A stretch of 64,000 bases of DNA, taken from positions 27,478 to 91,477 of the IMG/VR virus record IMGVR_UViG_3300034069_000595, one strand, 5' to 3'. The notes beneath the pieces were generated by a model. It ran no database searches, was not told the DNA's origin, and saw only the letters and a list, made by a program, of their open reading frames with translations. Numbering within the stretch: the first letter of the stretch is position 1; each line of letters starts with the position of its first letter. The position numbers and the translations under genes are program-made. Shown here one piece after another: positions 3,532-39,435 of the stretch. The DNA comes from a virus.

Positions 3532-3547
3532 GTCGTGATGAAAGGAT
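3532..3547 (+). promoter_or_regulatory. Late promoter motif variant
   Basis: GTCGTGAT-GAA-A-GGA-T upstream of the 3576 operon. Confidence 0.5.
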
Positions 3548-3575
3548 TATTTTACGAACCTTAGCAGCGTGCATC

Positions 3576-3848
3576 ATGAACTTCGGAAGCAAAACCATCC
3601 CTGCGGGACAGACCTTGACCATATCTGACGTCCCGGCCGGTACAGCGCTGGGCGTGAACCCGGGTCCAGGCGGGACAATGCGGGTGCAATATCGGATCAG
3701 CTCGAACGGGCAATTGTTCGACTGGCCATCGGGCCCGGTGACCGCGCAGATGTCTGACGTAACTGGATCGCCCTCATTCCAAGTCGTGTTCTCGGCGCTC
3801 GATGCGGACGGCTTCGCGGAATGGAACTCGCCGAAGCGGCGACCATAG
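3576..3848 (+). CDS. Small beta-rich virion accessory/adaptor protein
   Basis: ORF just downstream of the late motif; resembles small phage adaptor proteins (VNPGPGGTMRVQY..WPSG). Confidence 0.5.
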   Translation: MNFGSKTIPAGQTLTISDVPAGTALGVNPGPGGTMRVQYRISSNGQLFDWPSGPVTAQMSDVTGSPSFQVVFSALDADGFAEWNSPKRRP

Positions 3849-4087
3849 GAGGCAGACCCATACCAACAATATTTCAGCGCGGATCTGCCTCCCTCATGGG
3901 CGGCGCCTCCGCGAGCAAGCGCGGCATGTCAGGCGGCGTTCCGGCCCCGAGTGTCGGCGATCAAAACATGTTCCTCCGTGGCGATGGCACTTGGTCGCCA
4001 CCGCCAGCAGCTGATGCCGCCCTGAGTGTCGATGACCTATCCCTTCCCTTTGACCCCGTTGCAGCGTTCGAGAACGCCATAGGCTGA
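3821..4087 (+). CDS. Small fibre-like protein
   Basis: GGVPAPSVGDQNMFLRGDGTW is a motif typical of phage fibre proteins. Confidence 0.55.
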   Translation: MELAEAATIGGRPIPTIFQRGSASLMGGASASKRGMSGGVPAPSVGDQNMFLRGDGTWSPPPAADAALSVDDLSLPFDPVAAFENAIG

Positions 4088-4090
4088 CCC

Positions 4091-4585
4091 ATGTCTCTCG
4101 TTACCCAAGTCCAAAACCTGATCACCCGCACCGGCACCGAATTCAAGTCGGTGCGGGCGGCGATCGGCAATCTCGCCAATCTGACCACTTCGGCAAAAGG
4201 AGATGTGGTTACGGCAGTGAATGAGGTCCGCGCGCTGGCGAACAGTGCCGCTGGCATGATCAACGACTCGGCAGCCTCGACCGGGACAACGTACTCAAGC
4301 AGCAAGACCGACGCCCAGATCGCAGCAGCGCTCGCCGCCTTCACATCGGGAGCGCCGGCCGCGTTGGACACCTGGAACGAGTTGGTAGCCGAGCTGCAGA
4401 AAGATGCGACGGGCATCGCCGCGCTCACGGCAGCGCTGGGCAACCGTCTGGCGACAGATGCTGTGCAGACCCTCACGCCGCAACAGAAGGCTCAAGCCAT
4501 CGCGAACCTTGGCTCGATCGCAGCTGCTGATGTCGGCGACGTGACCACGGACTTTGTGGCTGCCTTCAATCAGGCCCTCCTGTGA
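4091..4585 (+). CDS. Head-fibre/collar-like coiled-coil protein
   Basis: MSL..R..TEFKSVR..IGNLANLTT.AK..VV.AVNE and APAALDTW.EL motifs of phage fibre/decoration proteins. Confidence 0.6.
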   Translation: MSLVTQVQNLITRTGTEFKSVRAAIGNLANLTTSAKGDVVTAVNEVRALANSAAGMINDSAASTGTTYSSSKTDAQIAAALAAFTSGAPAALDTWNELVAELQKDATGIAALTAALGNRLATDAVQTLTPQQKAQAIANLGSIAAADVGDVTTDFVAAFNQALL

Positions 4586-4995
4586 GCCTGGCCGGCGAGG
4601 TCGTTAAGGGTGTCCTGAGGATCGCAGCGGAGTTCAAATCAGTCAGGACCGCCCTGGCGAGCCGCGTGGCATGCTGGGACGCGCTCGGCCTTATGCCTGC
4701 TCCGGTGGAGTGGCAGGGGACGGCAACCTCTCTGTCGGATGGCACCTGGTCGGTGAGCTTTCCCGCGGGCCTGTTCACCAAGGCTCCGCTCGTGTTCACG
4801 CAGGCAATATCCCCCGATAAGACGGCAGCTGCCACCTATGTCGCTGCGCCATGGCCGTCCACAATCTCTGGCTGTAGCGGCCACGTAGTCACTGGCAACA
4901 TCGTCACCACGCTGCTGATCAACGCCGGCGCCAACGGCCTCAAACTGTCCGGCGCGGGGATCACGGTGAACGTCCTGGCGAAATCTGTGCGCTAG
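4582..4995 (+). CDS. Fibre-tip-like protein paralogous at its N-terminus to the 4091 gene
   Basis: GTGA overlap with the previous gene; MSLAGEV..RIAAEFKSVRTAL; C-terminal lectin/gp53-like beta domain (WSVSFPAGLFTKAPLVF). Confidence 0.55.
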   Translation: MSLAGEVVKGVLRIAAEFKSVRTALASRVACWDALGLMPAPVEWQGTATSLSDGTWSVSFPAGLFTKAPLVFTQAISPDKTAAATYVAAPWPSTISGCSGHVVTGNIVTTLLINAGANGLKLSGAGITVNVLAKSVR

Positions 4996-5086
4996 TCCTG
5001 CGACGCTTCGACTCCCGTGCAAAATGGCTATTCCCCAAAGTCGCTCATCGCAATAGGACGACACCGCTCTCACAAAGGAGTTGTGT

Positions 5087-5368
5087 ATGGGTATAGGTAA
5101 GCGACCGGGATGGACAGCCGCTGAGCTTGAGTTGCTTGGCGGGTTAGCCGCCCACTTTCCACCAGACACCTTGGGCGAGCAGGGCTGTACAGAGGAGGGA
5201 GATCCTTGGTTTGTCTTGGAGCGGCCTGACGGATCAGCTCTCGTGCACTTTGCTAAAATTGAAAAACGCTACGTCAGCGCGACATCGCAGGCCGGTGAGT
5301 TTGATGCTCACGATCAAATAGTGCCGCTGGTGCTGAGATTTCTCCGGCGCAACAACAAGACTGACTGA
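5087..5368 (+). CDS. Hypothetical protein with a TEEGDPWFV...VHFAKI motif
   Basis: AAGGAG RBS; visibly more A/T-ending codons than the structural genes. Confidence 0.6.
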   Translation: MGIGKRPGWTAAELELLGGLAAHFPPDTLGEQGCTEEGDPWFVLERPDGSALVHFAKIEKRYVSATSQAGEFDAHDQIVPLVLRFLRRNNKTD

Positions 5369-5394
5369 CTAGAAATGTAGACTTTCGAATATGG

Positions 5395-5420
5395 AAAACC
5401 CCGCCGGAGCGGGGTTTTTT
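5395..5420. terminator. Bidirectional terminator
   Basis: aaaaccccgc-cgga-gcggggtttttt between convergent genes. Confidence 0.85.
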
Positions 5421-5425
5421 GTGCC

Positions 5426-6016
5426 TTACAGAAGATTTCCGACGTAGGCGTTTGGGTCATCCAGAGCGGCTGCGCGCAGCATCGAGTTGATGTTGGCGTA
5501 GGTGCGGTTGATGAACTCCTGGCCCTCGCTGAAGGCGACGATGCAATTGGAGCGGGTCAGGGAGCCGCTGTCCAGCGCGGCGGTATAAGCTGCCAAGCCA
5601 CCAGCGTCTGGCGAGCGGCCGAGGACAACCTCGTACAGGATGGTGACGAAGGTGCTGTTCGACGAGCTGGGCGAGTAGACGGCCTGGAATTCGGCCGAGG
5701 TTGCCAGGGCGGCGGCAACAGCCTGCACCGCTGCGGTCTGATTTCCGAGGGCATTGCGGTTGGCGACCAGGCTCGCAGCCCAGCTGTCCAAGCCTGCGGT
5801 GTCTGGCTTGCGTCGGAACATTGCCTGGTAGAGGCGGCAGATCGGGCGGACGTTGGAATCCACTTCGCCCTGGCCGATCAACTCTTCCACCATAGTGGCA
5901 TAGGTCGTACCGCTGCCAAGCCGGACGTTGTAGGCCTCAAGGTAACCAGATGGAGCAGAGGGGGTGCGAACAGTCGCGTGCCAGGCTTTGTTAATTTGCG
6001 CGTCATAAACGCCCAT
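5426..6016 (-). CDS. Stand-alone DUF4214 / S-layer-anchor-like protein 1
   Basis: RLYQAMFRRKPDTAGLDSW and FVTILYEVVLGRSPDAGGL motifs; GAGGT RBS before ATG 6016. Confidence 0.75.
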   Translation of the reverse strand: MGVYDAQINKAWHATVRTPSAPSGYLEAYNVRLGSGTTYATMVEELIGQGEVDSNVRPICRLYQAMFRRKPDTAGLDSWAASLVANRNALGNQTAAVQAVAAALATSAEFQAVYSPSSSNSTFVTILYEVVLGRSPDAGGLAAYTAALDSGSLTRSNCIVAFSEGQEFINRTYANINSMLRAAALDDPNAYVGNLL

Positions 6017-6046
6017 GAAGCACCTCAGTACAATGGATGAGGGCAC

Positions 6047-6062
6047 ATGGTCAGGTCACGAC
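6047..6062 (-). promoter_or_regulatory. Late promoter motif
   Basis: GTCGTGAC-CTG-A-CCA-T on the minus strand. Confidence 0.7.
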
Positions 6063-6073
6063 AAATACGGCGC

Positions 6074-6103
6074 AAAAAAAGGCCCACCGAAGTGGGCCCT
6101 TTT
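6074..6103. terminator. Terminator
   Basis: aaaaaaa-ggcccac-cgaa-gtgggcc-ctttt. Confidence 0.8.
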
Positions 6104-6115
6104 ACTGGGTGCTGA

Positions 6116-6715
6116 TCAGGCGGCGACGTCGTGGTCCGTCACCTGGCGGGCATAGGCGTTCGGCACGTCGAAGAAAGCTTCCTTCAAGGTGCGCTCAAAC
6201 GAGGCGTCGAAGCGCCCGATGAACTCTGGCGAGCCGGCAAAGCGAGCCACGGTGCCCGGGCGGGTCCACTGACCGCTGTCAATCAGGTTGACGACATTGG
6301 TGATCTCGCTCGCCTCGCCAGGTCGACCAAGAAGGTCGGTGTACAGCTTCTGGACGAAAAAGATGGTGGTCATGGTCTGCGGAAAGCGAGCCAGGTACTC
6401 AGCCGTGTTCGCCCAGTACGTTTCCATGAAGTAAATGGTGTTCTGGTTCTGGATGCCCCGCAGGATCCCTGCCCACAAATCCAGCCCGGCAGAGTCGGCC
6501 GATCGACCGAATGCAGCTCGATAGAGACGCATCATTTGCAGCGTCTCCAGTTGCACGGTTGTTGCGCGGAACACGTTGCTGAGCACCTGGTCAAGCGGTG
6601 TTCCGGCGTTGAGCATATTGGTCAAGTAAGTTCGAAAATCGGCGGGAACCGTAGTCGAAGTCAGTCGGAAGTACACGGCGTAGATTTTGTTGATTGCAGC
6701 GTCGAATGAGACCAT
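6116..6715 (-). CDS. Stand-alone DUF4214 / S-layer-anchor-like protein 2
   Basis: RLYRAAFGRSADSAGLDLW and FVQKLYTDLLGRPG motifs; GAGGT RBS. Confidence 0.75.
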   Translation of the reverse strand: MVSFDAAINKIYAVYFRLTSTTVPADFRTYLTNMLNAGTPLDQVLSNVFRATTVQLETLQMMRLYRAAFGRSADSAGLDLWAGILRGIQNQNTIYFMETYWANTAEYLARFPQTMTTIFFVQKLYTDLLGRPGEASEITNVVNLIDSGQWTRPGTVARFAGSPEFIGRFDASFERTLKEAFFDVPNAYARQVTDHDVAA

Positions 6716-6741
6716 AGGCACCTCAATTGGGTTGAGGCTTT

Positions 6742-6757
6742 AGTCTGCTGTCACGCC
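6742..6757 (-). promoter_or_regulatory. Late promoter motif variant
   Basis: GGCGTGAC-AGC-A-GAC-T on the minus strand. Confidence 0.55.
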
Positions 6758-7080: not shown

Positions 7081-7096
7081 GTCGTGACGGCACTAT
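7081..7096 (+). promoter_or_regulatory. Late promoter motif; predicted leaderless portal mRNA
   Basis: GTCGTGAC-GGC-A-CTA-T, 7 nt before ATG 7104; no SD. Confidence 0.75.
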
Positions 7097-7103
7097 CGCG
7101 GCT

Positions 7104-8744
7104 ATGACTGATATCGCCCTCGAAGTTGCGCACAACCCGAATGCTCCGAAAGATGAGCAGCAGGACGCTATGCGTATCGCGCAGAAAGCCGCGATGCCCT
7201 CGTCCGTCCCGGATATGCTCCCCCTTGTCCAGTACGTGGCCGAGCAGTACCGCGAGCAGGAGTTCGCCAAGTCGCTGTCGAAGCAGAACGTCATCCCCTT
7301 CCCGAGCCGCAGTGCCGAGATGGGCCAGATCGGTATGCAGTCGGTCTGGCTGGACGATCAGCGCACGAACATCCAGGGCGAATGGTACGAGCGGCCGACC
7401 GCATTCAGCTTCGACACCATGCGCACTATGGCGGATAACACCCCGATCCTGGCTTCGGTGATCATGACCCGGCAGCGCCAGATCAAGCGCTTCTGCCGCG
7501 CCAGCGCGGACGGCAAGGGGCCAGGTTTCCAGATCAAGCTGAAGGACGGCGGCGCCAAGGTTGGGGCCGAGGAGCAGAAGAACATTCAGCTCCTGCAGGG
7601 CTTCTTCACCAACTGCGGCTGGGAGAGCAAGCCACGCATCCGCCAACGCCTGCGCCGGGACAACTTCTCCGGCTTTATGGCGAAGCAGATCCGCGACAGC
7701 CTGATCATGGACAGCGCGCCGATCGAGATCGAGTGGAAGCGCGACAAGAGCAAGGGCATCGACGGCTTCTATGCCGTTGACGGCTCGACCATCAGGCTTT
7801 GCAACGAGGTTGGCTACCAGGGCGACGATGAGATCTACGCGCTCCAGGTGCTCGAAGGCCGCATTCGTGCCGCCTACACCTATGACGACCTGATCTACGT
7901 GCCTCGCAACCCGCGCTCCGATGTCCTGGCCGGCGGCTACGGCATGTCCGAGACCGAGCTGCTGATCAAGGTGGTGACGGGCTTCCTGAACGCTTTCACG
8001 TACAACACCAAATACTTCGACTCGAACGCCATCCCGAAGGGACTGTTGCACCTCACAGGCGACTACAGCCAGGAAGATCTGGCCGCGTTCAAGCGGCAGT
8101 GGAATGGGATGGTCAAAGGCATTAACAACGCCTGGACGATGCCGGTGATGGTCTCGAAGAACTCGGAGTCGAAAGTAGGTTTCGAAAACTTCAATGCCGA
8201 CGTGAACGAGATTATGTTCGGCAAGTGGATGACCTTCCTGACGTCAATCATCTGCGCCATTTACGGCATGGCGCCAGACGAAATCAACTTCGAAAGCTTC
8301 ACCACGGGTGCCAGTTCGCTCTCCGGAAGCGACACCGAGGAAAAGCTGATCAACTCGAAGGATAAGGGTCTACGCCCTCTCCTGTCCCACTACGAGGATC
8401 TGCTGAGCGACTACATCGTCGGGGAGTTTGGCGACAAGTACGTGTTCCGCTGGACCGGCCTCGACGAGAAGGATCCGAGTCAGCTCTGGGCTGAGGAAGT
8501 CGCCCTAAGCACCTGGAACGAAGGCCGAAAGGCGCGTGGCTGGGATGAGATCAAGGATGAGATCCTTGGCAATGCTCCGCTGAACCCGAACCTAATGGGC
8601 GTCTACATGCAGGCCAACATGCCTGATGCGGCGCCAGGTGACGATCAGGGTGACGGCGACGACAAGCCGCCGAAGCCGAAAAAGCCCGGCGATGACATGG
8701 CGAAGGCTTTCGGGCTGCCTCCCATCTACAAAGTCCAGCCGTAG
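7104..8744 (+). CDS. Phage portal protein
   Basis: HK97/Herelle-type portal features (VDGSTIR, RNPRSD..GYGMSETELL, F.SNAIPKGLL); first gene of the head module. Confidence 0.9.
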   Translation: MTDIALEVAHNPNAPKDEQQDAMRIAQKAAMPSSVPDMLPLVQYVAEQYREQEFAKSLSKQNVIPFPSRSAEMGQIGMQSVWLDDQRTNIQGEWYERPTAFSFDTMRTMADNTPILASVIMTRQRQIKRFCRASADGKGPGFQIKLKDGGAKVGAEEQKNIQLLQGFFTNCGWESKPRIRQRLRRDNFSGFMAKQIRDSLIMDSAPIEIEWKRDKSKGIDGFYAVDGSTIRLCNEVGYQGDDEIYALQVLEGRIRAAYTYDDLIYVPRNPRSDVLAGGYGMSETELLIKVVTGFLNAFTYNTKYFDSNAIPKGLLHLTGDYSQEDLAAFKRQWNGMVKGINNAWTMPVMVSKNSESKVGFENFNADVNEIMFGKWMTFLTSIICAIYGMAPDEINFESFTTGASSLSGSDTEEKLINSKDKGLRPLLSHYEDLLSDYIVGEFGDKYVFRWTGLDEKDPSQLWAEEVALSTWNEGRKARGWDEIKDEILGNAPLNPNLMGVYMQANMPDAAPGDDQGDGDDKPPKPKKPGDDMAKAFGLPPIYKVQP

Positions 8745-10516: not shown

Positions 10517-10532
10517 GTCGTGACGTGAAGAT
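10517..10532 (+). promoter_or_regulatory. Late promoter motif
   Basis: GTCGTGAC-GTG-A-AGA-T. Confidence 0.7.
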
Positions 10533-10538
10533 TCAACT

Positions 10539-10788
10539 ATTCAAGCCCGTGTATTCCCTGAAGTCTGACAGGGCCGGTGGGGGCTAAGCCGCCGGATACT
10601 TTTCACCTTGCATCGCTCAAGGTGCTGCCATGGCAACATGGTGAGCCAGACAAAGCGGAGAGCGCAGCCCCTCTGTCCCTCGGGATAGTCGTAAGGGGGG
10701 AAGTCCGGATTGTCGGGCGGTGACCCCATACTCCCCGATGGGATCACCGCCCGGGGCGCATCCCTCCAACCTGATCTAGGATCTGGCA
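10539..10788 (+). ncRNA. Candidate structured ncRNA / long structured 5' leader
   Basis: At least seven helices including a GCAA tetraloop hairpin and a 10-bp GC stem; no convincing ORF; preceded by the late motif. Confidence 0.5.
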
Positions 10789-12289: not shown

Positions 12290-12305
12290 GTCGTGACGGC
12301 ACTGT
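12290..12305 (+). promoter_or_regulatory. Late promoter motif; predicted leaderless protease mRNA
   Basis: GTCGTGAC-GGC-A-CTG-T; predicted +1 is the A of ATG 12312. Confidence 0.75.
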
Positions 12306-12311
12306 AGCGGC

Positions 12312-13196
12312 ATGAACCAAGACGAACAGCTTCTTGCTGACATCCCCGATTTCTTAAGCATCTCCGAGATGCTGAAAGCTACGCCTTCTGAGGAAGGTGG
12401 GGAGCGCTACATCTATCTGGAAGCCAGCAACGAGGGCGTCGACCAGCAGGGCGAGCGCGTTCTTGCCAAGGCACTGGAAGAAAGCGCGAGCCACTTCCTC
12501 AAGTTCGGCAACATCGACCTCGACCACTACACCATCATCGGTCAGCGGATGGGCCTGGCTAACCCCATGGCCTACGAGGTCGGCCGCCCGGTCGACGTGA
12601 CCGTTCGTGGTGATCGCACCTTCGTCAAGGCCCAGCTGTATCGCGGCACCGGCGAACTCGCGAAGAACGCGAACATGGTCTGGGAGTCGATGACTCAGAT
12701 CAGCCCGCCGGCGCGCTGGTATCCGTCCGTGGGCGGGTCAGTGCTGGCTAAGAGCGTGGCTGTTGACCCGAGCGGCGGCGGCAAGATCGGCGTCGTTACC
12801 AAGGTGCGCTGGACGAACATCGCCCTGAGCCGCACGCCGGTGAACCAACACCTGCCAGCTGCTGGCACTGTTCCCCTCGCCACGTTCGCCAAATCCTTCG
12901 GTGGCCTGGTGATGAACAAGTCCCTCGCTGCGGGCTACGGCTCCGACATGGCGACGCTGTTTGGTGGTGATGCGATCCGCATGCAGTCCCTGGATAGCAC
13001 ACCGCAAGGTTACTTCGAGTTTCGCGATGAGATCGCTGGCGCTGTCAGCAGTCGTGAAGCCAATAATCAGACCCGAGATGGTTTGATCGCGTTTTCAACG
13101 CACAAATTCAATCTGTCGGCTCCTGAAGCTGCGGAGTGGGTGGATCGCTTCCTGAGCGATTTGAAAAAACATCAATCTAACCGGAGCAATCCATGA
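12312..13196 (+). CDS. Prohead protease
   Basis: ASNEGVDQQGE, IDLDH, SVGG catalytic-Ser region, IALSRTPVN; canonical position. Confidence 0.85.
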   Translation: MNQDEQLLADIPDFLSISEMLKATPSEEGGERYIYLEASNEGVDQQGERVLAKALEESASHFLKFGNIDLDHYTIIGQRMGLANPMAYEVGRPVDVTVRGDRTFVKAQLYRGTGELAKNANMVWESMTQISPPARWYPSVGGSVLAKSVAVDPSGGGKIGVVTKVRWTNIALSRTPVNQHLPAAGTVPLATFAKSFGGLVMNKSLAAGYGSDMATLFGGDAIRMQSLDSTPQGYFEFRDEIAGAVSSREANNQTRDGLIAFSTHKFNLSAPEAAEWVDRFLSDLKKHQSNRSNP

Positions 13197-13852
13197 GCAA
13201 ATTCAACGAATTGCTCGCTGCTATCGATGCTGAAGCGGTAGAGCAGAGCGAACTCGCAAAATCCCTCCCAGCAGCTAACGCGAAGGATGATGCCACCATC
13301 GCCGCCGCTGCCGCTGATGGCACCAAGGTCGACGCCGAACTGACCGATGCCGAGAAGGCCGCGAAGGCCGGCGAAGCCGACCTGACCAAATCTCTGGGCG
13401 AAGGCGCTGGCGCCGTGGCCGACGAGAACGTCGAAGTCATTGAGGTCGACGAGCTGATCAAGTCGATGGGCGAGCTGAACCAGCGCTTCGATGAAAACGA
13501 AGGCCTGATGGCGAAGGCGCTCGGCAACACGCTGAACCTGGTGAAGACCCAGGGCGAGATGATCAAGTCTCAGAACGAGCTGATCAAGTCGCTGAGCACC
13601 CGCGTGGACGCCCTGGGCAGTCAAGGTGCCGGCCGCAAAGCGTTGCTGGTAGCTACCGAGCGCGCCCAGCCCGGCGAACATCTGGCGAAGTCGCTTCCTC
13701 AAGTGGACGCGCCGAAACCCCAAGAAATTCTTGCCAAGTGCCTGGATGCTCAGCGTGCCGGCAAGCTTACCGGTGGCGACGTTGCTCGCGCCGAATCTCA
13801 ACTGAACCACGGTGTTGCGATCGATCCGCGCATCCTGGCAGTCATTTCCTAA
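13193..13852 (+). CDS. Scaffolding protein
   Basis: Acidic coiled coil between protease and capsid genes with repeated hydrophobic-x-KS motifs. Confidence 0.75.
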   Translation: MSKFNELLAAIDAEAVEQSELAKSLPAANAKDDATIAAAAADGTKVDAELTDAEKAAKAGEADLTKSLGEGAGAVADENVEVIEVDELIKSMGELNQRFDENEGLMAKALGNTLNLVKTQGEMIKSQNELIKSLSTRVDALGSQGAGRKALLVATERAQPGEHLAKSLPQVDAPKPQEILAKCLDAQRAGKLTGGDVARAESQLNHGVAIDPRILAVIS

Positions 13853-13867
13853 GCCCCGGAGGCATCG

Positions 13868-15328
13868 ATGGACTTCCTCAACAACCCCAACACCTCCGGC
13901 GAAGGCATTGCCGGTGATATGGGCCAAGCGGACCTGGTAGCGCTGCAGAAGTCTCTGCAAGCGGGCTACGGCTCCGACATGAACGACCTGAGCGGTGGTT
14001 CGGCCCTGCGTATCCAGTCTCTGGATACCACCCTGCAGGCCACTGTGCAGGACAACCAGCACTTCGCGCTGTTCAACGCTCTGCCGAAGCCCAAGGCGAC
14101 TGCGGTGCTGGATGAATGGACCGAGCAGTCTGACATCGGCGGCTTCCTGGGCGACAGCTTCAACGACCAGGATGGTGCTGCGTCTGAGACCAATGGTCAG
14201 TACGACCGCCGCATCGGTCGTGTGAAGTACATGACCACCTACCGCAAAATCCCGATCGTTCTGCAAAGCCAGAACAACCTGGCCGACGCGGTTTCCCTGG
14301 AGACCATCAACGGCTCCAAGCAGCTGCTGTCCTCGATCGAGTTCAGCCTGTTCGAAGGTAACGATCAGGTCACCCCGAAATCCTTCGCCGGCATTCGCCA
14401 GCAGATCGAAAGCCTGGGCAGCCCCGACCACGTGATCGACATGCGCGGCTCGTCCCTGGACAGCGCCGATCCGATCATGAAGGCCGCTGAGACCGTGTTC
14501 GGCTTCGGCAACTTCGGCAAGCTGACCGACATCTACATGCCTCCGAGCGTGCAGAGCGACCTGAACACCAACCTCGACCCGGCTTTCCGTGTCGCGTTGG
14601 ACAACAGCCCGAACAGCATCTCGTACGGCACCCACGTCCGCGCGATCCGCACCTCCTGGGGTGACATCGCCACGAAGAACGACGTGTTCATCCGTGACGA
14701 GAAGATGCAGAAGCCGTTCGAGATCCGTAACGGGATCCACGCAGCTGCCGCTGTGGCGAACGCTGCGTACAAGCCTGTCGGCCTGACCGCTGTGGCTGCT
14801 GCTGGCCCTGCTGACTCGTACTGGGAAGCGTCTCACGCTGGTGCCTACGTGTACTACGTGACCGGCATCACCGAGAAGGGCGAGACTCAGGTCGTTGCGG
14901 CAACTGGCGGCGCTGTCACCGTCGCTGCTGGCGGCAAGGTCACCCTGTCCATCACCCCGTCTGCCTCCGGCATCGAGACTGGCTACGTGATCTATCGCGG
15001 TCGCAAGGATGGCACCGCTGCCCTGACCGACGTTCGCGAGATGGTTCGCGTGCCGAAGAACTCCGGCGGCAACACCGTGTACGTGGACCTCAACCGCGAG
15101 ATCCCTGGCACCACCTGCTCCTACGCCCTGAACCTGTCGGCCAGCGACCACGCCATTGCCTGGCGCCAGTACCTGCCGATGATGAAGATCCCGATGGCAG
15201 CGGTGAACAGCCCGATCATCCCTTGGCTGCAAATGATCTGCGGTTACCTGCGGATCACCAAGCGCAACCAGCACGTGGTTCTGAAGAACATCGTGCCTCG
15301 TGGCGCACTCTGGAAGCCTTTCGGCTGA
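13868..15328 (+). CDS. Major capsid protein (Herelleviridae-like)
   Basis: KSLQAGYG...GGSALRIQSLD resembles phage K-type KSFQTGYG...AGALRREILD; strongly biased codons. Confidence 0.92.
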   Translation: MDFLNNPNTSGEGIAGDMGQADLVALQKSLQAGYGSDMNDLSGGSALRIQSLDTTLQATVQDNQHFALFNALPKPKATAVLDEWTEQSDIGGFLGDSFNDQDGAASETNGQYDRRIGRVKYMTTYRKIPIVLQSQNNLADAVSLETINGSKQLLSSIEFSLFEGNDQVTPKSFAGIRQQIESLGSPDHVIDMRGSSLDSADPIMKAAETVFGFGNFGKLTDIYMPPSVQSDLNTNLDPAFRVALDNSPNSISYGTHVRAIRTSWGDIATKNDVFIRDEKMQKPFEIRNGIHAAAAVANAAYKPVGLTAVAAAGPADSYWEASHAGAYVYYVTGITEKGETQVVAATGGAVTVAAGGKVTLSITPSASGIETGYVIYRGRKDGTAALTDVREMVRVPKNSGGNTVYVDLNREIPGTTCSYALNLSASDHAIAWRQYLPMMKIPMAAVNSPIIPWLQMICGYLRITKRNQHVVLKNIVPRGALWKPFG

Positions 15329-17837: not shown

Positions 17838-18691
17838 GACTTCTTCGCCAGCGTCCGCTTGATCGCCTCGGCGAAAGCGGCGTTGGCCTTGGGTTGGATG
17901 GCGTCTACGGTCTTCTTCGCCAGGAACAGGCCTGGCTGCGGAGGGATAACCCAGCCGGCCGAGCCCTCGATCATGATCCGGAACGTCAGGAACGCCGAGG
18001 ACTTCGCGCCACCTGGTGTGCTGGTGTCGAAGCGGTGCATGCCGGCCGCCCACTTCCGCGCCGCAGGGCTGATGCCCGCCTCCTTCATCGCGGTCTTCTT
18101 CAGCCGATCGCCCCACGCGTAGTTGTTCTTCGGCACCATCAGCGCCTGCTTCGTTTTCGGGTTCGACAAGAACGGCGTTTGGCTTTTGGACGGCGACATG
18201 CCCGACGTAGGCGACAGGTGGGTCACCTCTCCGCTCGGACGCTCACCCTGGCCGAGGATGGTCGAGGCGTTCAGCTCGGAGGCCATGCCGTAGACCCCGG
18301 CGTCTTCGAGCTTCTTCACGTTGTGGCGCATCGGGATCACCAGGAACCGGCGCCCGTCCTCTGTCCTTCGCACCTTCACGCTCGTGCCGAGCATCTTCTT
18401 GAGGTCGCGCGCCGGCCTGCCGCTCTCGATCTCCTGCGCGTAGCGGTAGTCCGACTCCACCAACGCGGTGAAATCGCCCGTCATCGACCACTTGATCGTT
18501 TTGGCGTAGGCGTCCTTTTCGCCCGACCAGAGCTTCGCCTGGTAGACGTTCGCCTGCCAGTTCGAGGCCGTTTGAGCGGCAACAGCCCTCACCGCCTGAT
18601 TGAGCAGCGGGAAGACTTGCTTGTTCACAATGCCTTGGACGTCGAGCGTGCTGCCGAGGTCAAAGCTGAATTTGATATTGAGGTCTGCCAT
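17834..18691 (-). CDS. Putative neck/tail-completion protein on the opposite strand
   Basis: Natural-looking ORF (YAQEIESG...DLKKML, RFLVIP); own late motif; position among neck genes. Confidence 0.6.
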   Translation of the reverse strand: MADLNIKFSFDLGSTLDVQGIVNKQVFPLLNQAVRAVAAQTASNWQANVYQAKLWSGEKDAYAKTIKWSMTGDFTALVESDYRYAQEIESGRPARDLKKMLGTSVKVRRTEDGRRFLVIPMRHNVKKLEDAGVYGMASELNASTILGQGERPSGEVTHLSPTSGMSPSKSQTPFLSNPKTKQALMVPKNNYAWGDRLKKTAMKEAGISPAARKWAAGMHRFDTSTPGGAKSSAFLTFRIMIEGSAGWVIPPQPGLFLAKKTVDAIQPKANAAFAEAIKRTLAKKS

Positions 18692-18698
18692 ACCATCC

Positions 18699-18746
18699 AG
18701 CATCGCGTCACGAGGGAGCGCCGACAAACCGTCGTGACGCCATCAT
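18699..18746. promoter_or_regulatory. Back-to-back divergent late promoters
   Basis: CTCGTGAC-GCG-A-TGC-T (minus, 18699-18714) and GTCGTGAC-GCC-A-TCA-T (plus, 18731-18746). Confidence 0.75.
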
Positions 18747-18752
18747 CGGCGC

Positions 18753-19577
18753 ATGATCTCAATTATCCGGCCGCTTCCGATCGGCAACGCGCTTCGAATC
18801 TTCGTCGAGCCCCCAGCAGGCGCGAAGTATTGGCGCGTCCTGCGCAAAGCCTCCGACACATTCGATGGTGGTCCGGACGATGACTACGCCCTGAAGGTCT
18901 ACGAGGGCGATGAGAAGTCGTTCGTGGATGCCGCCTCGCTGCCGAATGAGCAGATGGCGTTCTACAAGCCGTTCTACCGGATCGGCTCGGCATGGGTTCC
19001 TGGCGAAACAGGCTATGGAACGCCGGCCTCCACCTTCGAAGACCACAGCACAGATGTGATCGCCATTCTGCGCAGTCGCCTTGAGGCTGGCATGCGGGTC
19101 GAGTGTGAGCGCGGCAACTTCGCAACCGAGCTGGGCTACATCCAGGTGTTCACCGCGCCCCCCTCGCTGGGCAACGTCGAGCTGCCGGTAGTCACCGTCG
19201 AGCTGGACCATGCCGGCCCCGGCGATCGCGCGATCGGTGAGGACATCATCGGAGATGAGTTCGACGATGACGGCTGGATGGATTCCGAAGGCTGGCTGGA
19301 GAACGTCACCGCCACCATCGTGGCCTGGTCGCTGAACAGCGATGAGCGCATCGAGCTGAGAAAGGCGTTGCGCCGCATCCTTCTGGCGAATCTGCCGGTC
19401 CTCAATGACGCTGGTGTCCAGCAAGTAAGCTTCAGCTTTACAGATATGAATGCAGTCGGCGGCGAGTTTGACGCCCCGATGTACCAGGTCATCTGCAATT
19501 TCTCATGTATCGCACCAGCTCGCGTCAGTGGCCGCGTCGGTTCGATCGAGGATGTCGAGGTCACCGTTCGCGACTGA
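18753..19577 (+). CDS. Putative tail terminator / tail completion protein
   Basis: Position before the sheath; LPVVTVEL..., SLNSDERIELR pattern. Confidence 0.5.
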   Translation: MISIIRPLPIGNALRIFVEPPAGAKYWRVLRKASDTFDGGPDDDYALKVYEGDEKSFVDAASLPNEQMAFYKPFYRIGSAWVPGETGYGTPASTFEDHSTDVIAILRSRLEAGMRVECERGNFATELGYIQVFTAPPSLGNVELPVVTVELDHAGPGDRAIGEDIIGDEFDDDGWMDSEGWLENVTATIVAWSLNSDERIELRKALRRILLANLPVLNDAGVQQVSFSFTDMNAVGGEFDAPMYQVICNFSCIAPARVSGRVGSIEDVEVTVRD

Positions 19578-22126: not shown

Positions 22127-22168
22127 GAAAGCCCGCCTCGCGCGGGCTTTCTGTCGTGACGGGACAAT
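22127..22168 (+). promoter_or_regulatory. Terminator (22127-22151) directly followed by late promoter motif (22153-22168)
   Basis: gaaagcccgc-ctcgc-gcgggctttc then GTCGTGAC-GGG-A-CAA-T. Confidence 0.75.
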
Positions 22169-28185: not shown

Positions 28186-28201
28186 GTCGTGACGCCATCA
28201 T
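28186..28201 (+). promoter_or_regulatory. Late promoter motif; predicted leaderless mRNA
   Basis: GTCGTGAC-GCC-A-TCA-T; predicted +1 is the A of ATG 28208. Confidence 0.75.
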
Positions 28202-28207
28202 GGCGTC

Positions 28208-29362
28208 ATGGACCTATCTACGCCTGCATCTCAGAAAGCCGAGGAGTGTCCCATCACCTTTGTGATGGATGACGACTCCGCCGGCACGTCCGAAGAAATG
28301 ACCCTCCTGATCCGTCCGGAGGAGCTTTCGATCGGGTTCCCAAGCCGCCTGTCTGTGAACCAGACGCTGGGCGGCGCGTGGGCGGACAGCTTCGGCGAAG
28401 GGCTTGAGGAGGGAACCTTCTCGGGCACCCTCGGGTGGCGCGCCACCAGCAACGACAGCGGCGGCACTGAGCGCCTGGTGAACCTGAAGAACTTCGCCTA
28501 CTCCGACTGGCATGCACGGCGAGCAGCTGCGGTGGCAAAGGGCAACGACCCGGCCATGGTGCGCTTGCAGCTGGTGGACACGCTGAACAACTACTCGCGG
28601 GTCATCGCGCCCCGGGTGTTCGAGCTGAAGCGCAGCAAGAGCCGGCCGCTGCTGGCGCAGTACCGGTTCAACTTCGTCATGCTGTCGCGCGACCTGACGG
28701 GCAAGGATCTGCTCCAGTCGGACAGCGCGCTCGGCGGCTTCCTCGGCACCATCGGCTCGTGGATCGACAGCTTTACCACCTCGATCAACAACATCACCGA
28801 CCGCATTCGGACCGCGTACCGCTGGATCGATAAGACCATCATCACGCCGGTCAAAGCCTTCGTGGCGAAAACGATGCAGATCTACAAAGCCGTCAACAAC
28901 CTGGTCACCGCGGGCGTCGGGATCATTCGGCAGGTCGGCAGCATTGCGACACTGGCTACCTCCGCAATTACGAACGTGCTGCGAACCGCTGCGCTGGCAG
29001 TCAACATCCCCAACATCGCCAAGGCGGCGATCATGAACGTCGTGCGTGAGTACACCAACATCTTCTGTCTGCTGCGCAACGCCCGCGGCCTGCTGAGCTA
29101 CGAGGATTATTCGGACATCTACGGCGCCTCGAACTGCTCCTCGACGTCGGGTGGTCGCTCGATCTCGATCTACTCAGGATCGACCAACAACACGTTTGCC
29201 GCCATCTCGAAGCAGGACGCCTCGCCGATCGTGGTCACTCAGGGCGCATCGAACAGCCTCAAATCACTCGCCAGCGCGGACCTGGTCACCACCAGCCTGT
29301 CCTCGACCACGATCAACGGAAACCTCTCGGTAGCGAACGCCGGTATCACGGTGACCGCATGA
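28208..29362 (+). CDS. Baseplate/tube-initiator protein
   Basis: LLIRPEEL...QTLGGAWADSFGEG motif of tube-initiator-type proteins. Confidence 0.6.
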   Translation: MDLSTPASQKAEECPITFVMDDDSAGTSEEMTLLIRPEELSIGFPSRLSVNQTLGGAWADSFGEGLEEGTFSGTLGWRATSNDSGGTERLVNLKNFAYSDWHARRAAAVAKGNDPAMVRLQLVDTLNNYSRVIAPRVFELKRSKSRPLLAQYRFNFVMLSRDLTGKDLLQSDSALGGFLGTIGSWIDSFTTSINNITDRIRTAYRWIDKTIITPVKAFVAKTMQIYKAVNNLVTAGVGIIRQVGSIATLATSAITNVLRTAALAVNIPNIAKAAIMNVVREYTNIFCLLRNARGLLSYEDYSDIYGASNCSSTSGGRSISIYSGSTNNTFAAISKQDASPIVVTQGASNSLKSLASADLVTTSLSSTTINGNLSVANAGITVTA

Positions 29363-32202: not shown

Positions 32203-32218
32203 GTCGTGACGCCATGCT
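32203..32218 (+). promoter_or_regulatory. Late promoter motif
   Basis: GTCGTGAC-GCC-A-TGC-T. Confidence 0.7.
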
Positions 32219-34845: not shown

Positions 34846-35274
34846 ATGATTTTATACAGCGCGTCAACTGGCCTTTTTTACGATACCGATTTAGGCGCGG
34901 AAACCCCGTCCGACGTGGTTGAAGTCTCCCGCGAAGATCATCAGAAATTGCTCGACGGGCAGACCGATGGGAAGGTTATTTCCTCGTCCGCCGATGGTCA
35001 GCCCGTACTGATCGAGCGGCCTCCGCTGACGGTCGAGGAGCTGACCGCGATGGCCTTTGGCAGTCGCGACAACATGCTTTCGTTTTCCGCCATTCGCATC
35101 GCGCCACTGCAGGATGCGGTAGATATGGATCAGGCCAGCGATGAGGAAGTTGCGAGCCTGGCGACGTGGAAGCAATATCGGATTGATCTGAACCGGATCC
35201 ATCTCCAGAAGGGATTTCCGGAGAAGATTAAGTGGCCCGCATCGCCTGAAGAATTGGCCGCAACTGTCTCGTGA
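34846..35274 (+). CDS. Tail fibre assembly chaperone
   Basis: IAPLQDAVD...WKQYRIDLNRI...WP motif, typical of Pseudomonas prophage fibre chaperones. Confidence 0.88.
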   Translation: MILYSASTGLFYDTDLGAETPSDVVEVSREDHQKLLDGQTDGKVISSSADGQPVLIERPPLTVEELTAMAFGSRDNMLSFSAIRIAPLQDAVDMDQASDEEVASLATWKQYRIDLNRIHLQKGFPEKIKWPASPEELAATVS

Positions 35275-35284
35275 CGCACATAAT
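35268..35284 (+). promoter_or_regulatory. Late promoter motif (N4 spacer variant)
   Basis: CTCGTGAC-GCAC-A-TAA-T. Confidence 0.6.
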
Positions 35285-35994: not shown

Positions 35995-36010
35995 TCTTTG
36001 CAGCTGTAAC

Positions 36011-36040: not shown

Positions 36041-36065
36041 GCACATCTAATCCGCAAAATGTGTC

Positions 36066-36081
36066 GTCGTGACTGAACAAT
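36066..36081 (+). promoter_or_regulatory. Late promoter motif
   Basis: GTCGTGAC-TGA-A-CAA-T. Confidence 0.7.
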
Positions 36082-36118
36082 CTCTTTGCTGCAATCCGTA
36101 GCGATAGAGATCTTCCTG

Positions 36119-36640
36119 ATGTCCGATATTGGCCCATTCGATCACATTTTTCTCAATGACACCGCAAACCTGGAAGCGCAGCCTGATGGCGCTGTGGTCC
36201 TGTATACCGGCGGCGATGGTGTCTCCGGAAGCCAGTTCACCTTCACGGCCGAAGGCAAGATCCTGGTTGATGGCAGCGAGTACGCTGGTCCGGCCCCGGC
36301 GGCGCCCGCAGTGCCTGCTTTCATCGCTCCGATACTCCTGAACAGCTGGAAGAATCACGGCGATACGGCCAACTACAAGCAATCGGTGGCTGGCTATCGC
36401 AAGCACGCTGACGGCACCGTTGAGCTGACTGGCCTGGTGGATGGTGGGGCTGTTGGCACCAACATTTTCAACCTGCCAGCCGGCTACCGTCCTGCCAACC
36501 AGAAGGCCTTTGCGGTCTGCTGTGCCGCGAGCGGCGACACCATTGCCTTCATCAAGATCCAGCCTAACGGCAACGTGCTGTTCTCCACCGGCACGCCAAA
36601 CTCGGTCTTCTTGACTGGCGTTCGCTTCCCACTGGCTTGA
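36119..36640 (+). CDS. Accessory receptor-binding-like protein B (paralog of A)
   Basis: IGPF N-terminus shared with A; LLNSW...RK...VELTG.VDGG...IFNLPAGYRP. Confidence 0.65.
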   Translation: MSDIGPFDHIFLNDTANLEAQPDGAVVLYTGGDGVSGSQFTFTAEGKILVDGSEYAGPAPAAPAVPAFIAPILLNSWKNHGDTANYKQSVAGYRKHADGTVELTGLVDGGAVGTNIFNLPAGYRPANQKAFAVCCAASGDTIAFIKIQPNGNVLFSTGTPNSVFLTGVRFPLA

Positions 36641-36652
36641 TCCAGACGTAGC

Positions 36653-36681
36653 AAAAAATGCGCCTTCCGGGGCGCATTTTT
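36653..36681. terminator. Terminator
   Basis: aaaaaatgcgcc-ttccgg-ggcgcattttt. Confidence 0.8.
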
Positions 36682-36717
36682 GTTTCCGCCTGTCTGATCG
36701 GCGATTTGCCAGCAGCC

Positions 36718-36733
36718 GTCGTGACATCAGCCT
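36718..36733 (+). promoter_or_regulatory. Late promoter motif for the lysis operon
   Basis: GTCGTGAC-ATC-A-GCC-T. Confidence 0.7.
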
Positions 36734-36764
36734 CTGCTTTGTACTCACACAAAGCGGAACACCC

Positions 36765-37073
36765 ATGACTTCCTTCAAACGTACCAAGGCCCTTGCCGAT
36801 AAGTCGGCCTGGCTGCTCATGCTCCCCTCAATCGTTGCGCTGTGTTTCATCGACCTGTCGATGCTCAAGACGCTGCTCCAGTGGCTCGTCTTCGCCCCAG
36901 TCCTGGCCGGTGTGGCGGTCATCGTCAGCCGCATCGTGTTCCCCCAGATCCATCTCAGCGACCTGGTTGATCAGACCGAGCAGGGCAACACGGCCTCCGC
37001 CATCCTGGCGTCCGCTCTGGTGATTTTCGTGGCTCTTGTGGTGCTCGCCCTGGTCATGTGGGCGAAGGCGTAA
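36765..37073 (+). CDS. Putative holin
   Basis: 102 aa, three hydrophobic segments, directly upstream of the endolysin. Confidence 0.6.
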   Translation: MTSFKRTKALADKSAWLLMLPSIVALCFIDLSMLKTLLQWLVFAPVLAGVAVIVSRIVFPQIHLSDLVDQTEQGNTASAILASALVIFVALVVLALVMWAKA

Positions 37074-37786
37074 TGAAGCGCCTCCTGCTCGCCCTCATCG
37101 TCCAGGCGATCCTGTCTGTCCCGGCGGCTGCCGCGGACGCAGTGCCAGCCCGGGCGGCTCAGTACCTGCCGACCCTGGTGGGTGCCCAGCGTTCGATCTG
37201 GCCGGGCGCACCTATGCCGTCCTTCCTGGCCGCTCAGGTCGAGCAGGAAAGCTGCATCACGCTCAAGCACTCCAAGTGCTGGAACCCGACAGCCCAGCTC
37301 AAAACCTCGCGCGAGTGGGGCCGCGGACTGGGCCAGGTCACCACGGCCTACCGCACAGACGGCTCGGTGCGCTTCGACAAGCAGGAGGAGCTGCGCCAGC
37401 AGTTTCCCTCGCTGCGAGGCTGGACCACTGCCAGGTGGTCGGACCCAACCTACCAGCTGACCGCCATCGTCGAGATGGACAAGTCGATCTACGGGCGCCA
37501 GCGCGACGCGGCCGATCCGATCGAGCAGCTGAAGTTCACGCTGTCAGCCTATAACGGCGGCGAGGGTGGCGTGCTCCAGGACCGCCGGCTCTGCGCGAAC
37601 ACGAAGGGTTGTGACCCTTCGCGCTGGACTGGACACGTCGAGCGCACAAGCCTGAAAAGTAAAATCGCCTCGAAGGGCTACGGAAAGTCCTTCTTCGCAA
37701 TAAACCGGGAGTACGTCACCAATATTCTGGATGTACGTCGGCCCAAATACGAACGATTTTTCAGGGCCACATCCGATGTCAATTGA
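37073..37786 (+). CDS. Endolysin, lytic transglycosylase (SLT) family with N-terminal signal
   Basis: AAQVEQES catalytic Glu, GRGLGQ, LSAYNGGEG. Confidence 0.85.
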   Translation: MKRLLLALIVQAILSVPAAAADAVPARAAQYLPTLVGAQRSIWPGAPMPSFLAAQVEQESCITLKHSKCWNPTAQLKTSREWGRGLGQVTTAYRTDGSVRFDKQEELRQQFPSLRGWTTARWSDPTYQLTAIVEMDKSIYGRQRDAADPIEQLKFTLSAYNGGEGGVLQDRRLCANTKGCDPSRWTGHVERTSLKSKIASKGYGKSFFAINREYVTNILDVRRPKYERFFRATSDVN

Positions 37787-38000
37787 ACGCGAGGAATTTC
37801 GCGAGTTGGAAAAGGCGGTCGATGCGGTCGATCGCAACACCATCCGCCTGCAAGAGCAGGTGAGTAGCATGCAGAAGAAGATCGACGACCTTGTGTCCCG
37901 AGCTGAATTTGCTCCCGTCAAACTGATCGCTTACGGGCTCGCAACTGCCGTTGGCTCATCGGTTATCATGGCGATCCTCGCCAAGGTGATCATCAAATGA
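37776..38000 (+). CDS. Coiled-coil plus C-terminal TM lysis-associated protein
   Basis: 74 aa with a single C-terminal TM segment, inside the lysis cassette. Confidence 0.55.
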   Translation: MSIEREEFRELEKAVDAVDRNTIRLQEQVSSMQKKIDDLVSRAEFAPVKLIAYGLATAVGSSVIMAILAKVIIK

Positions 38001-38455
38001 ACCTCGATCTCAGCTTCAGAGACCGCGCCTTTATTGGCGCGGCTCTCTACCTCGGTTTCCTGTTCGTCTCGATGATCACGCTGTATTGGCTGATCCTCAT
38101 CGGCGGCAACCCGATGACGGTCACCAACGTCGGGATCGTCAGCGCAACGGGGTTCCCGAACGATCGATTCCACGCAGGCGATGTTGTCGGCATCAAGCGT
38201 CAGCTCTGCTCGAAGCACGAGTTGGCGGTGCAGTTCTTCCCGTCTCTGGTCGATTCACGCGGATACAGGTTCCCGCTGCCTGGCGGCATGGCTGAAGTCC
38301 AGGAGGGCTGCCACACGACCACCTACGGGTTCGTCGTCCCTGACCTGCCGGCCGGCGAATACACCTACTCGAACGCCGTCCGCTTCCAGAACAACCTGGT
38401 GGGCCGCGACGAGGCCGCAACCTTTCCCCCGCTGCGCATAAGGATCATGAGATGA
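37997..38455 (+). CDS. Membrane-anchored periplasmic protein (antiholin-like?)
   Basis: N-terminal TM and beta-rich domain with two Cys; ATGA overlaps. Confidence 0.5.
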   Translation: MNLDLSFRDRAFIGAALYLGFLFVSMITLYWLILIGGNPMTVTNVGIVSATGFPNDRFHAGDVVGIKRQLCSKHELAVQFFPSLVDSRGYRFPLPGGMAEVQEGCHTTTYGFVVPDLPAGEYTYSNAVRFQNNLVGRDEAATFPPLRIRIMR

Positions 38456-38889
38456 GCATTGTTACCGATCTGGCGCTGGGCACAGCATCGTCCGCCGTCA
38501 AGCGCTCCCTTCTTCCCTGGTTCCTCGTGGCCGCCATGCTGGCCCTCGGCTCTGCTGGCGCAGCTGGCATGTACGGCGGCTATGAGATCGCCAACGCCCG
38601 CTACGCCAAGGAGCGCGCTGCACTGCAGGACGCACAGCTCGAAGCATTGAAAGCCAAGGGCGAGGCGCTGGCAGAGGCGACCAAGCGCGGCGATGAGGTC
38701 GCAGGCAATTTCCTTGCTGCGCTGAAGGACATGAAGATCGTGAACACCACGATCAACAACGAGGTGCGCAAGGAGACTGAGAAGCTGGTCTACACCGACT
38801 GCAAGCTCCCCGACAGCGGCGCTGACCTGCTCAAGAAGAACGTGGACGCGGTCAACCTGCGTCTGCTTGGGAAGGGGAAAACGAAGTGA
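38452..38889 (+). CDS. i-spanin (Rz-like)
   Basis: TM anchor, coiled coil, C-terminal YTDCKLPD. Confidence 0.7.
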   Translation: MSIVTDLALGTASSAVKRSLLPWFLVAAMLALGSAGAAGMYGGYEIANARYAKERAALQDAQLEALKAKGEALAEATKRGDEVAGNFLAALKDMKIVNTTINNEVRKETEKLVYTDCKLPDSGADLLKKNVDAVNLRLLGKGKTK

Positions 38890-39140
38890 GATATCTGGCA
38901 CTGGCCATCGCCCTGATGCTGGGCGGCTGCGGCACAACTTATGAGTTCAGGGTTGATGCCGATCAGGCAAAGGCCGATCGAGCGCTGACAGAGACTTGCG
39001 ACATCGTGCCGGACCCGCCGTCCCGTGGATCGTCGTTCGGAACGGTCTATGAGTTCGGCAACAAAATGGTCGGGCTGTACGGTGAGTGCGCGGTACGTGA
39101 CCGCGCGAAGTACGATTACATCAAGAGCCAGGGGCACTAA
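38886..39140 (+). CDS. o-spanin (Rz1-like lipoprotein)
   Basis: LGGC lipobox; YGECAVR motif. Confidence 0.7.
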   Translation: MRYLALAIALMLGGCGTTYEFRVDADQAKADRALTETCDIVPDPPSRGSSFGTVYEFGNKMVGLYGECAVRDRAKYDYIKSQGH

Positions 39141-39367
39141 GCCCGCTGGGCCGCGGCCTTCTCCTGGAGCGTCTTGCACCCGACGCAGATGCGAAAACCG
39201 TGGGACCGCCTGGCGTCCGGCATGTCATCGCCGCAGCTGTCAACGACGCAGAACTCCGGACCGTAGCCGGGCTCACCAGGTGCATATTTCACGGGCGCCG
39301 GCCGCGACCGGTTGTTGCGTTCCCACTCCAGCAGCTCGACCGCCTGCGTTTGATCTTCCAAAGACAT
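39137..39367 (-). CDS. TraR/DksA C4-type zinc-finger protein
   Basis: C..C.DDMPDARR....ICVGCK; 76 aa. Confidence 0.75.
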   Translation of the reverse strand: MSLEDQTQAVELLEWERNNRSRPAPVKYAPGEPGYGPEFCVVDSCGDDMPDARRSHGFRICVGCKTLQEKAAAQRA

Positions 39368-39419
39368 CCTGTGTTCCTCGCATAAAAATGGCCCCGGGTT
39401 CGTTCCGGGGCCTGTTGTC

Positions 39420-39435
39420 ATTCTGGTGTCACGCC
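39420..39435 (-). promoter_or_regulatory. Late promoter motif variant for the TraR-like gene
   Basis: GGCGTGAC-ACC-A-GAA-T. Confidence 0.5.

Follow-up and report, generated by a model that had tools for sequence, protein, structure and literature searches.

How does a phage of this kind start transcription of its virion genes? The question was raised by a 64,000-nt stretch of viral DNA (bases 27478-91477 of the 93,589-bp IMG/VR record IMGVR_UViG_3300034069_000595, 61.7% GC; hereafter the window), in which a short motif, TCGTGAC-N3-A-N3-T, recurs at the junctions between genes. A preliminary description of the window had listed 15 copies and read them as late promoters of structural units. Our analysis indicates that the motif is, with high probability, a phage-specific promoter lacking a -35 box. 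We further regard it as moderately probable that its family-wide form, GTCGTGAY-N3-A-N3-T, represents the late (or middle-late) promoter of an entire phage family and is used by host sigma70 together with a phage factor.

Within the window, the full pattern had 11 exact matches against 0.43 expected, a number that none of 100 shuffled sequences reached. The bare heptamer TCGTGAC was not enriched (17 matches versus 10.8 expected), indicating that the signal consists of box, A and T together. Across the whole genome, 13 matches to the pattern were found. Four near-copies complete the set of 15 sites in the window: the box reads GTCGTGAT at 3532, GGCGTGAC at 6757(-) and 39435(-), and CTCGTGAC at 35268, where one base is added before the A; site 18714(-) also begins CTCGTGAC, with the heptamer intact. 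Pattern search and inspection of the near-copies thus confirmed the number of copies, the fixed spacing of A and T in 14 of them and the extra base at 35268. The coordinates reported earlier were all correct and denote the G preceding the heptamer (GTCGTGAC). A weight matrix trained on 49 sites from three other phages, with this genome excluded, returned as its top 14 matches in the window 14 of the listed sites (14.9-24 bits), and only 35268 was missed by the ungapped matrix due to its one-base insertion. Every weaker match (50157, 50584, 46802(-), 54580(-) and 35063) fell in coding sequence or at noise level. The list is therefore complete and not tuned to this genome. As had been described, each of the 15 sites lies between genes or overlaps a stop codon, and each points into the next gene. 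The reversed control pattern did not occur in the genome. Outside the window, about five more genomic sites (1320, 6168, 14881, 24620 and possibly 27242) bring the total to roughly 20; they precede two DNA methylase units, the gene of a 1261-amino-acid (aa) protein and the terminase. Hence, the statement that the motif heads structural units holds and has to be widened, as methylases, terminase, the 1261-aa protein, lysis genes and a TraR/DksA-like gene are headed by it as well.

By its capsid protein, the virus belongs to a family comprising the Pseudomonas phages Dolphis and Jeremy, Bordetella phage PHB04, Aeromonas phage ST4, Morganella phage Mecenats66 and E. coli phage ECML-606-1, the last with Enterobacter and Yersinia relatives. 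The nearest named relative is Pseudomonas syringae phage Touem01 (78% nucleotide identity across the virion genes), and the Thermus Lalka phages are more distant members (34% identity to the major capsid protein of Lalka27a). Alignment of 67 sites from this genome, Touem01, Dolphis and PHB04, in which the search pattern prescribed A-11 and T-7, gave the consensus G-22 T C G T G A Y-15, R-14, A-11, a-9, A-8, T-7. The heptamer TCGTGAC proposed earlier thus stands as the core of the motif but not as its full consensus, which across the family is the octamer GTCGTGAY. Position -15 is C or T, -14 mostly G or A and -12 C or G, not T, while a TG at -18/-17 is invariant. Among positions left free by the search, A-8 was present in 44 of the 67 sites and A-9 in 32. 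This preference, like the distance to the start codon described below, agrees with the earlier reading of A-N3-T as a -10 hexamer. No -35 or UP-like element was detected in the alignment, since information remained below 0.1 bit from -57 to -24 except for 0.11 bit at -50; all sequence-level tests fit the original proposal of a fixed box that abuts a -10-like element and lacks a -35. In a consensus scan, sigma70-like sites were no commoner than in shuffles. An extended -10 was likewise absent from the 67 sites, the TG of the motif lying three bases upstream of -15/-14.

At matching junctions in Touem01, Dolphis, PHB04, ST4 and ECML-606-1, the box, the A, the T and their distance are retained, and often the leaderless ATG too, whereas the bases between and upstream of these elements vary. 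We also retrieved 27 IMG/VR loci by their portal protein (53-81% identity, GC 44-69%), and 26 of them carried the box directly before the portal ATG. Its retention over this range shows that GC content does not account for the motif. A pattern scan yielded 24 IMG/VR records, 18 of which hold 6-15 copies each; almost all of these lie on one strand, and the reversed control gave hardly any. Motif, position, orientation, spacing, conservation and the missing -35 box are direct observations. In Mecenats66 (49% GC), the box is largely lost and two relics remain; matching junctions carry ordinary TGnTATAAT-like extended -10 promoters with ribosome-binding sites. Many late genes of this phage (terminase, ORF50, ORF75, holin) have a hairpin and T run that ends directly at the ATG and stands behind an extended -10-like box, a junction design unlike the rest of the family. 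Our literature search found no paper linking the motif with phage promoters, in line with the earlier remark that it is not a described promoter class, and promoters are not a subject of the Mecenats66 genome paper.

The distance to the start codon was informative about the start of transcription. At five sites in the window (Table 1) and three further genomic sites outside it, an ATG begins 6 or 7 nt past the T. With 2.8% per site expected by chance, the figures are 8 of 20 for this genome (p ~3e-8) and 31 of 67 for the four aligned phages (p ~3e-30). In Dolphis and PHB04, start codons chosen by the depositors themselves coincide with those placed by the motif; the Dolphis terminase gene, whose site crosses the record end onto base 1, is one such case. 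Moreover, phages share the first codons past the ATG but differ in the 6-7 bases 5' of it. Spacing and codon conservation together place the predicted +1 on the A of the ATG, which is where a -10 ending at that T predicts transcription to start. Such mRNAs would lack a leader and a ribosome-binding site (about 40% of sites); elsewhere, leaders of 20-260 nt carry GGAG-like ribosome-binding sites. From its sequence context, we consider it very likely that GTCGTGAY-N3-A-N3-T is a promoter with +1 at or next to the ATG. The reading as an extracytoplasmic-function (ECF)-type promoter, in which the box would be the -10 and the conserved A the +1, was rejected in view of the missing -35, the AAT preference and the ATG spacing. 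Some deposited starts disagree with the motif-set ATG: the ST4 portal gene is annotated 90 nt downstream of it, and the annotated starts of Dolphis gp15 and gp25 lie 162 and 60 nt downstream of theirs, respectively. The motif would thus fix true start codons missed by gene callers in these three genes and in five genes of the window.

Hairpins followed by T runs were seen immediately 5' of the boxes at 12290, 22153, 36066, 36718 and 6062(-), that is, at all five sites for which a preceding intrinsic terminator had been claimed; a generic promoter/terminator scanner was undiscriminating and overlooked them. In addition, two sites form a divergent pair (18699-18746), placed back to back within about 60 bp and kept in Touem01, Dolphis, PHB04 and ECML-606-1. 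Neither the sites just past terminators nor the divergent pair can be fed by upstream transcription and they need initiation of their own, as the earlier view of separately started units had it. The late region would accordingly be a chain of about 20 such units, several of them insulated by intrinsic terminators. The same sites speak against the idea that the motif acts on RNA, as an endonuclease site trimming transcripts to leaderless mRNAs, or is a DNA signal unrelated to transcription (methylation, packaging). The fixed distance to the ATG would suit a trimming site, and the many DNA methylases encoded across the family, together with a MazEF pair in Dolphis, supply conceivable agents. Five of the sites, though, lie just past terminators, the divergent pair has no sense transcript upstream of it, the A-N3-T with A-8 fits a -10 hexamer, and the sites are orientation-locked and strictly intergenic. 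We thus regard an RNA or non-transcription signal as scarcely credible.

Taking these observations together, we infer that the motif is active as a promoter with a defined start point, that it is used late and by host sigma70, and that a phage factor exists, which the earlier description had taken for an activator or sigma-like factor. We propose the following mechanism. The downstream half of the motif (A-11...A-8 T-7) would serve as a minimal sigma70-type -10, presumably opened by region 2 of the host primary sigma. The invariant octamer from -22 to -15 would replace the missing -35; a protein encoded by the phage presumably binds it, keeps RNA polymerase in place and supplies the contact normally provided by the -35 box. 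Initiation 6-7 nt past the T would then give rise to leaderless mRNAs at about 40% of sites and to leadered mRNAs elsewhere. A spacer at -22 to -15 faces sigma region 3 and the zinc-binding domain and zipper of beta', and it is in this region that phage P1 puts its Lpa box and that SspA sits.

Unaided host sigma70 holoenzyme might instead recognize the element if the octamer were an unusually placed contact for conserved host parts (sigma region 3, or the zipper/zinc-binding domain of beta'), with timing set by repressors, replication or the state of the template. The box does not vary between phages of four host genera (Pseudomonas, Bordetella, Aeromonas and E. coli), although proteins across the family have diverged to 35-60% identity, and this invariance, which weighs against the proposed mechanism, could equally mean that a conserved host component reads the box. 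Furthermore, GTGACR inside the box resembles the TTGACA hexamer, and box-less Mecenats66 manages with ordinary extended -10 promoters at the same junctions. On the other hand, the TG stands at -18/-17 and not at -15/-14, a -35-like hexamer 1 bp from the -10 should be out of reach for sigma region 4 in the normal holoenzyme, and we are aware of no host promoter built in this way (no scan of host genomes was made). We therefore judge recognition by the host enzyme alone to be decidedly improbable.

The search for the reader, as well as two points about RNA, weigh against a host sigma70 plus phage factor. Six-frame Pfam searches of the whole genome (PF04542, PF04545, PF08281; E<=10) revealed no sigma70 region 2 or 4 domain, a result that very diverged sigmas could escape. 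No homologue of P1 Lpa (gp10) was found when all predicted proteins were searched with blastp and phmmer (best E-value 0.4). An AraC-type activator, a 290-aa HTH_18 protein (genome 8735-9607) present here and in Touem01, Dolphis, Jeremy, PHB04 and ST4, was rejected because tblastn and six-frame Pfam searches did not find it in motif-bearing ECML-606-1. For a 181-aa protein introduced below, the structural model (predicted local distance difference test, pLDDT, 85) gave nothing above noise in Foldseek (PDB, BFVD) or VIA-align wide, and look-ups in a protein atlas added nothing informative. The model of a small helix-turn-helix (HTH) protein (pLDDT 76) gave generic HTH matches only (lambda CII and IS3 OrfA among them), all with E>0.3. 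Among public RNA runs, the only matches to the phage were contigs, which cannot show starts. Finally, leaderless translation of abundant late proteins is unusual in gamma- and beta-proteobacteria.

As to the rejected AraC-type gene, it shares one presence pattern with the integrase, the TraR/DksA-like gene and a Ser/Thr phosphatase (genome 8735-9607, window 39137-40875 and genome 22756-23520 for the set): all occur in the six temperate members and not in ECML-606-1 or Mecenats66. The gene thus travels with temperate lifestyle, not with the motif.

Four small uncharacterised proteins are encoded in all motif-bearing genomes: the 181-aa protein, a Cys-rich 132-aa protein, a DUF7696 protein and an HTH protein of 80-117 aa. 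The 181-aa protein, the product of the first gene of an early operon, is basic and has eight conserved Cys and an invariant core (CxRCHRGGMRL...CVSCWNRAREV); the gene of the 132-aa protein, likewise basic, follows it (genome 110-508). As for the HTH protein, 18 homologues of 43-75% identity share its presumed recognition helix RATPDRW without variation. The protein at the corresponding position of box-less Mecenats66 carries another helix and escapes detection by BLAST, and the conserved core of the 181-aa protein is altered there too; since both have changed, the comparison does not separate the two candidates. A predicted complex of two candidates with region 4 of Pseudomonas sigma70 scored 0.50 (control, 0.42), which speaks neither for nor against them. 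We name the HTH protein and the two Cys-rich early proteins as putative readers of the box. Our tentative and more specific proposal, which may well turn out otherwise, is that a sigma-appropriation factor of a new type docks on the octamer, with the HTH protein or the Cys-rich pair as candidates and the start exactly on the A of the ATG.

The Cys-rich proteins also bear on the idea that a diverged phage-encoded sigma-like subunit replaces host sigma70 late and reads the whole element from -22 to -7 itself, in the manner in which T4 gp55 reads an extended -10. The missing -35, the non-T at -12 and the contiguous conservation from -22 to -7 would be well explained in this way, and two basic Cys-rich proteins at the head of the early operon of every family member, the larger without a recognisable fold, could provide such a subunit. 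However, the six-frame searches gave no sigma70 region 2 or 4 signal, the 181-aa model contains no helical sigma-2-like domain, and the A-11/A-8/T-7 pattern is already read by the host primary sigma. Replacement of host sigma70 thus appears unlikely to us; the authors of the Lalka27a study likewise found no phage sigma (bioRxiv 10.64898/2026.04.20.719267).

Table 1 Predicted promoter sites and related features (window positions unless stated otherwise)
Feature	Position	Strand	Details
Predicted promoter	3532..3547	+	GTCGTGAT-GAA-A-GGA-T; 17.0 bits; orthologous site in Touem01
Predicted promoter	6047..6062	-	Directly after terminator hairpin; leadered, GAGGTG ribosome-binding site; 206-aa gene
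Predicted promoter	6742..6757	-	Box GGCGTGAC; leadered; 201-aa paralogue of the 206-aa gene; 17.1 bits
Predicted promoter with leaderless ATG (7104)	7081..7106	+	Portal gene; layout also in Touem01, Dolphis, PHB04, ST4
Predicted promoter	10517..10532	+	257-nt untranslated leader, then 384-aa head-module gene (10789)
Predicted promoter with leaderless ATG (12312)	12290..12314	+	Post-terminator; prohead protease; orthologous in Touem01, Dolphis, PHB04, ST4
Predicted promoter with leaderless ATG (18691-18689)	18689..18714	-	CTCGTGAC; 285-aa gene; half of divergent pair
Predicted promoter with leaderless ATG (18753)	18731..18755	+	274-aa gene; other half of divergent pair
Predicted promoter	22153..22168	+	Abuts terminator after tail-tube gene; 35-nt leader, 127-aa gene
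Predicted promoter with leaderless ATG (28208)	28186..28210	+	Baseplate-module gene; orthologous in Touem01, PHB04
Predicted promoter	32203..32218	+	27-nt leader, then 151-aa baseplate/fibre gene
Variant site	35268..35284	+	CTCGTGAC-GCAC-A-TAA-T, one extra base; overlaps stop of preceding gene
Predicted promoter	36066..36081	+	Post-terminator; precedes 184-aa gene
Predicted promoter	36718..36733	+	Post-terminator; 31-nt leader, holin-like gene (36765), endolysin
Predicted promoter	39420..39435	-	GGCGTGAC; between integrase and TraR/DksA-like gene; 19.9 bits
Candidate reader (putative), small HTH protein	48135..48488	+	Invariant RATPDRW helix; first gene of replication operon
Palindromic operator copies	48101-48118, 56801-56818, 60068-60085, 40910-40927, 3465-3482; genome 9737, 92239		

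Some of the sites listed in Table 1 deserve further description. The ATG 28 nt past the T of site 3532 starts a 90-aa gene that is followed by tail-fibre-like genes. Site 22153 had the best matrix score (24 bits), and its box is identical in Touem01 and PHB04. The long leader at 10533-10788 folds only moderately better than shuffles (z=-1.8), and Rfam gave no family match within 3000-41000, this leader included; the PHB04 orthologue of the 384-aa head-module gene is leaderless. The holin and endolysin genes are homologous to their PHB04 counterparts. Within 8 nt after the site at 39435(-), a strong GC hairpin with a T run (GGCCCCGG...CCGGGGCC ATTTTT; 39386-39435(-)) was observed, and the same layout of promoter and hairpin occurs at the integrase/TraR-like junction of Touem01 and Dolphis. 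The hairpin may act as an attenuator, may yield a short RNA, or may be the terminator of the integrase gene, located behind the promoter. The start of the capsid gene (13848-14106) is matched at 98% identity by a 259-nt contig of a freshwater metatranscriptome, suggesting that a close relative was present in that sample and was possibly expressed. The 181-aa Cys-rich gene (genome 93120-93589 joined to 1-110) crosses the ends of the linear record and shifts frame at the junction; the record is thus a permuted circle with 1-2 bases missing or duplicated at its ends.

A second control element was found in early and divergent control regions. With up to 2 mismatches allowed, this 18-bp palindromic operator, TTGATCAAATAAGATCAA, has seven matches, where 2.1 would be expected. 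Touem01 has it too, Dolphis and ST4 retain it in part, and lytic ECML-606-1 and Mecenats66 lack it. The palindrome marks a second class of promoters, under repressor control.

Phage promoters in which the -35 is swapped, those of T4 (MotA/AsiA) and P1 (Lpa/SspA), have shown how RNA polymerase can be re-aimed. The element described here offers a sharp 16-bp signal, a base-exact prediction of the start and dozens of genomes over four host genera. It delimits late transcription units of uncultured relatives and predicts leaderless translation of abundant late proteins in proteobacteria. If the octamer indeed docks an appropriation factor, widespread beta- and gamma-proteobacterial phages would express their major virion proteins from leaderless mRNAs in hosts thought poor at translating such messages. 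Since cultured members grow on E. coli and Pseudomonas putida, the reader should be findable by standard biochemistry.

The closest known system is that of the phage P1 late promoters (LPpac, LPhot and others), which depend on Lpa (gp10) and host SspA. The P1 record annotates a "-22 region" and a -10 at LPpac and LPhot. In both systems, a spacer box near -22 (here -22 to -15) replaces the -35 while a sigma70-type -10 is retained, and multiple copies stand before the operons for morphogenesis, packaging and lysis in a temperate myovirus of about 94 kb; the LPpac box (ATGTGACTT) even contains GTGAC as well. The P1 box, however, has 9 bp and lies 4 or 9 bp from the hexamer, compared with 8 bp and a distance of 2 bp here. 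Moreover, blastp and phmmer found no Lpa homologue in this phage, its virion genes are unrelated to those of P1, and the P1 sites that we inspected are not leaderless. P1 Lpa is a small, sequence-specific DNA-binding activator that binds this box and acts with host SspA (PMC1891329).

In T4 middle promoters, similarly, the host sigma70 -10 is kept and the -35 is replaced by a phage box, which a DNA-binding protein of the phage reads, through sigma appropriation by MotA/AsiA. The MotA box is centred near -30 and has a different sequence, and T4 middle mRNAs have leaders. Extended -10 promoters (TGn; Thermus phage P23-45 and Mecenats66) resemble the element in being independent of a -35 and in making extra contacts just upstream of the -10, but here the TG is three bases too far upstream and eight bases are conserved rather than two. 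Within the capsid lineage itself, the late genes of the distant relative Lalka27a are served by about 16 promoters that have a special -10 but lack a -35, and half of these are supported by 5'-end data 6 nt past the -10 (bioRxiv 10.64898/2026.04.20.719267). Its transcripts are mostly leaderless, neither a phage sigma nor a phage RNA polymerase was found, no antitermination was inferred, and the authors infer a phage factor that re-aims the host polymerase (bioRxiv 10.64898/2026.04.20.719267). Both phages share the absence of the -35 from the late promoters, and leaderless transcripts are predicted here as well. In Lalka27a, however, the elements are TAGGGT and a single conserved C at -25, whereas the phage studied here has nAnaAT and the octamer, with nothing conserved at -25, and Lalka27a infects Thermus, where leaderless mRNAs are common. 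Taken together, a factor box that replaces the -35 is of a known kind (P1 late and T4 middle promoters), as are leaderless late units (Lalka27a). New are the sequence of the box, its position 2 bp from the -10, the absence of any protein recognisable as its reader, and the breadth of the element among beta- and gamma-proteobacterial phages with leaderless virion genes.

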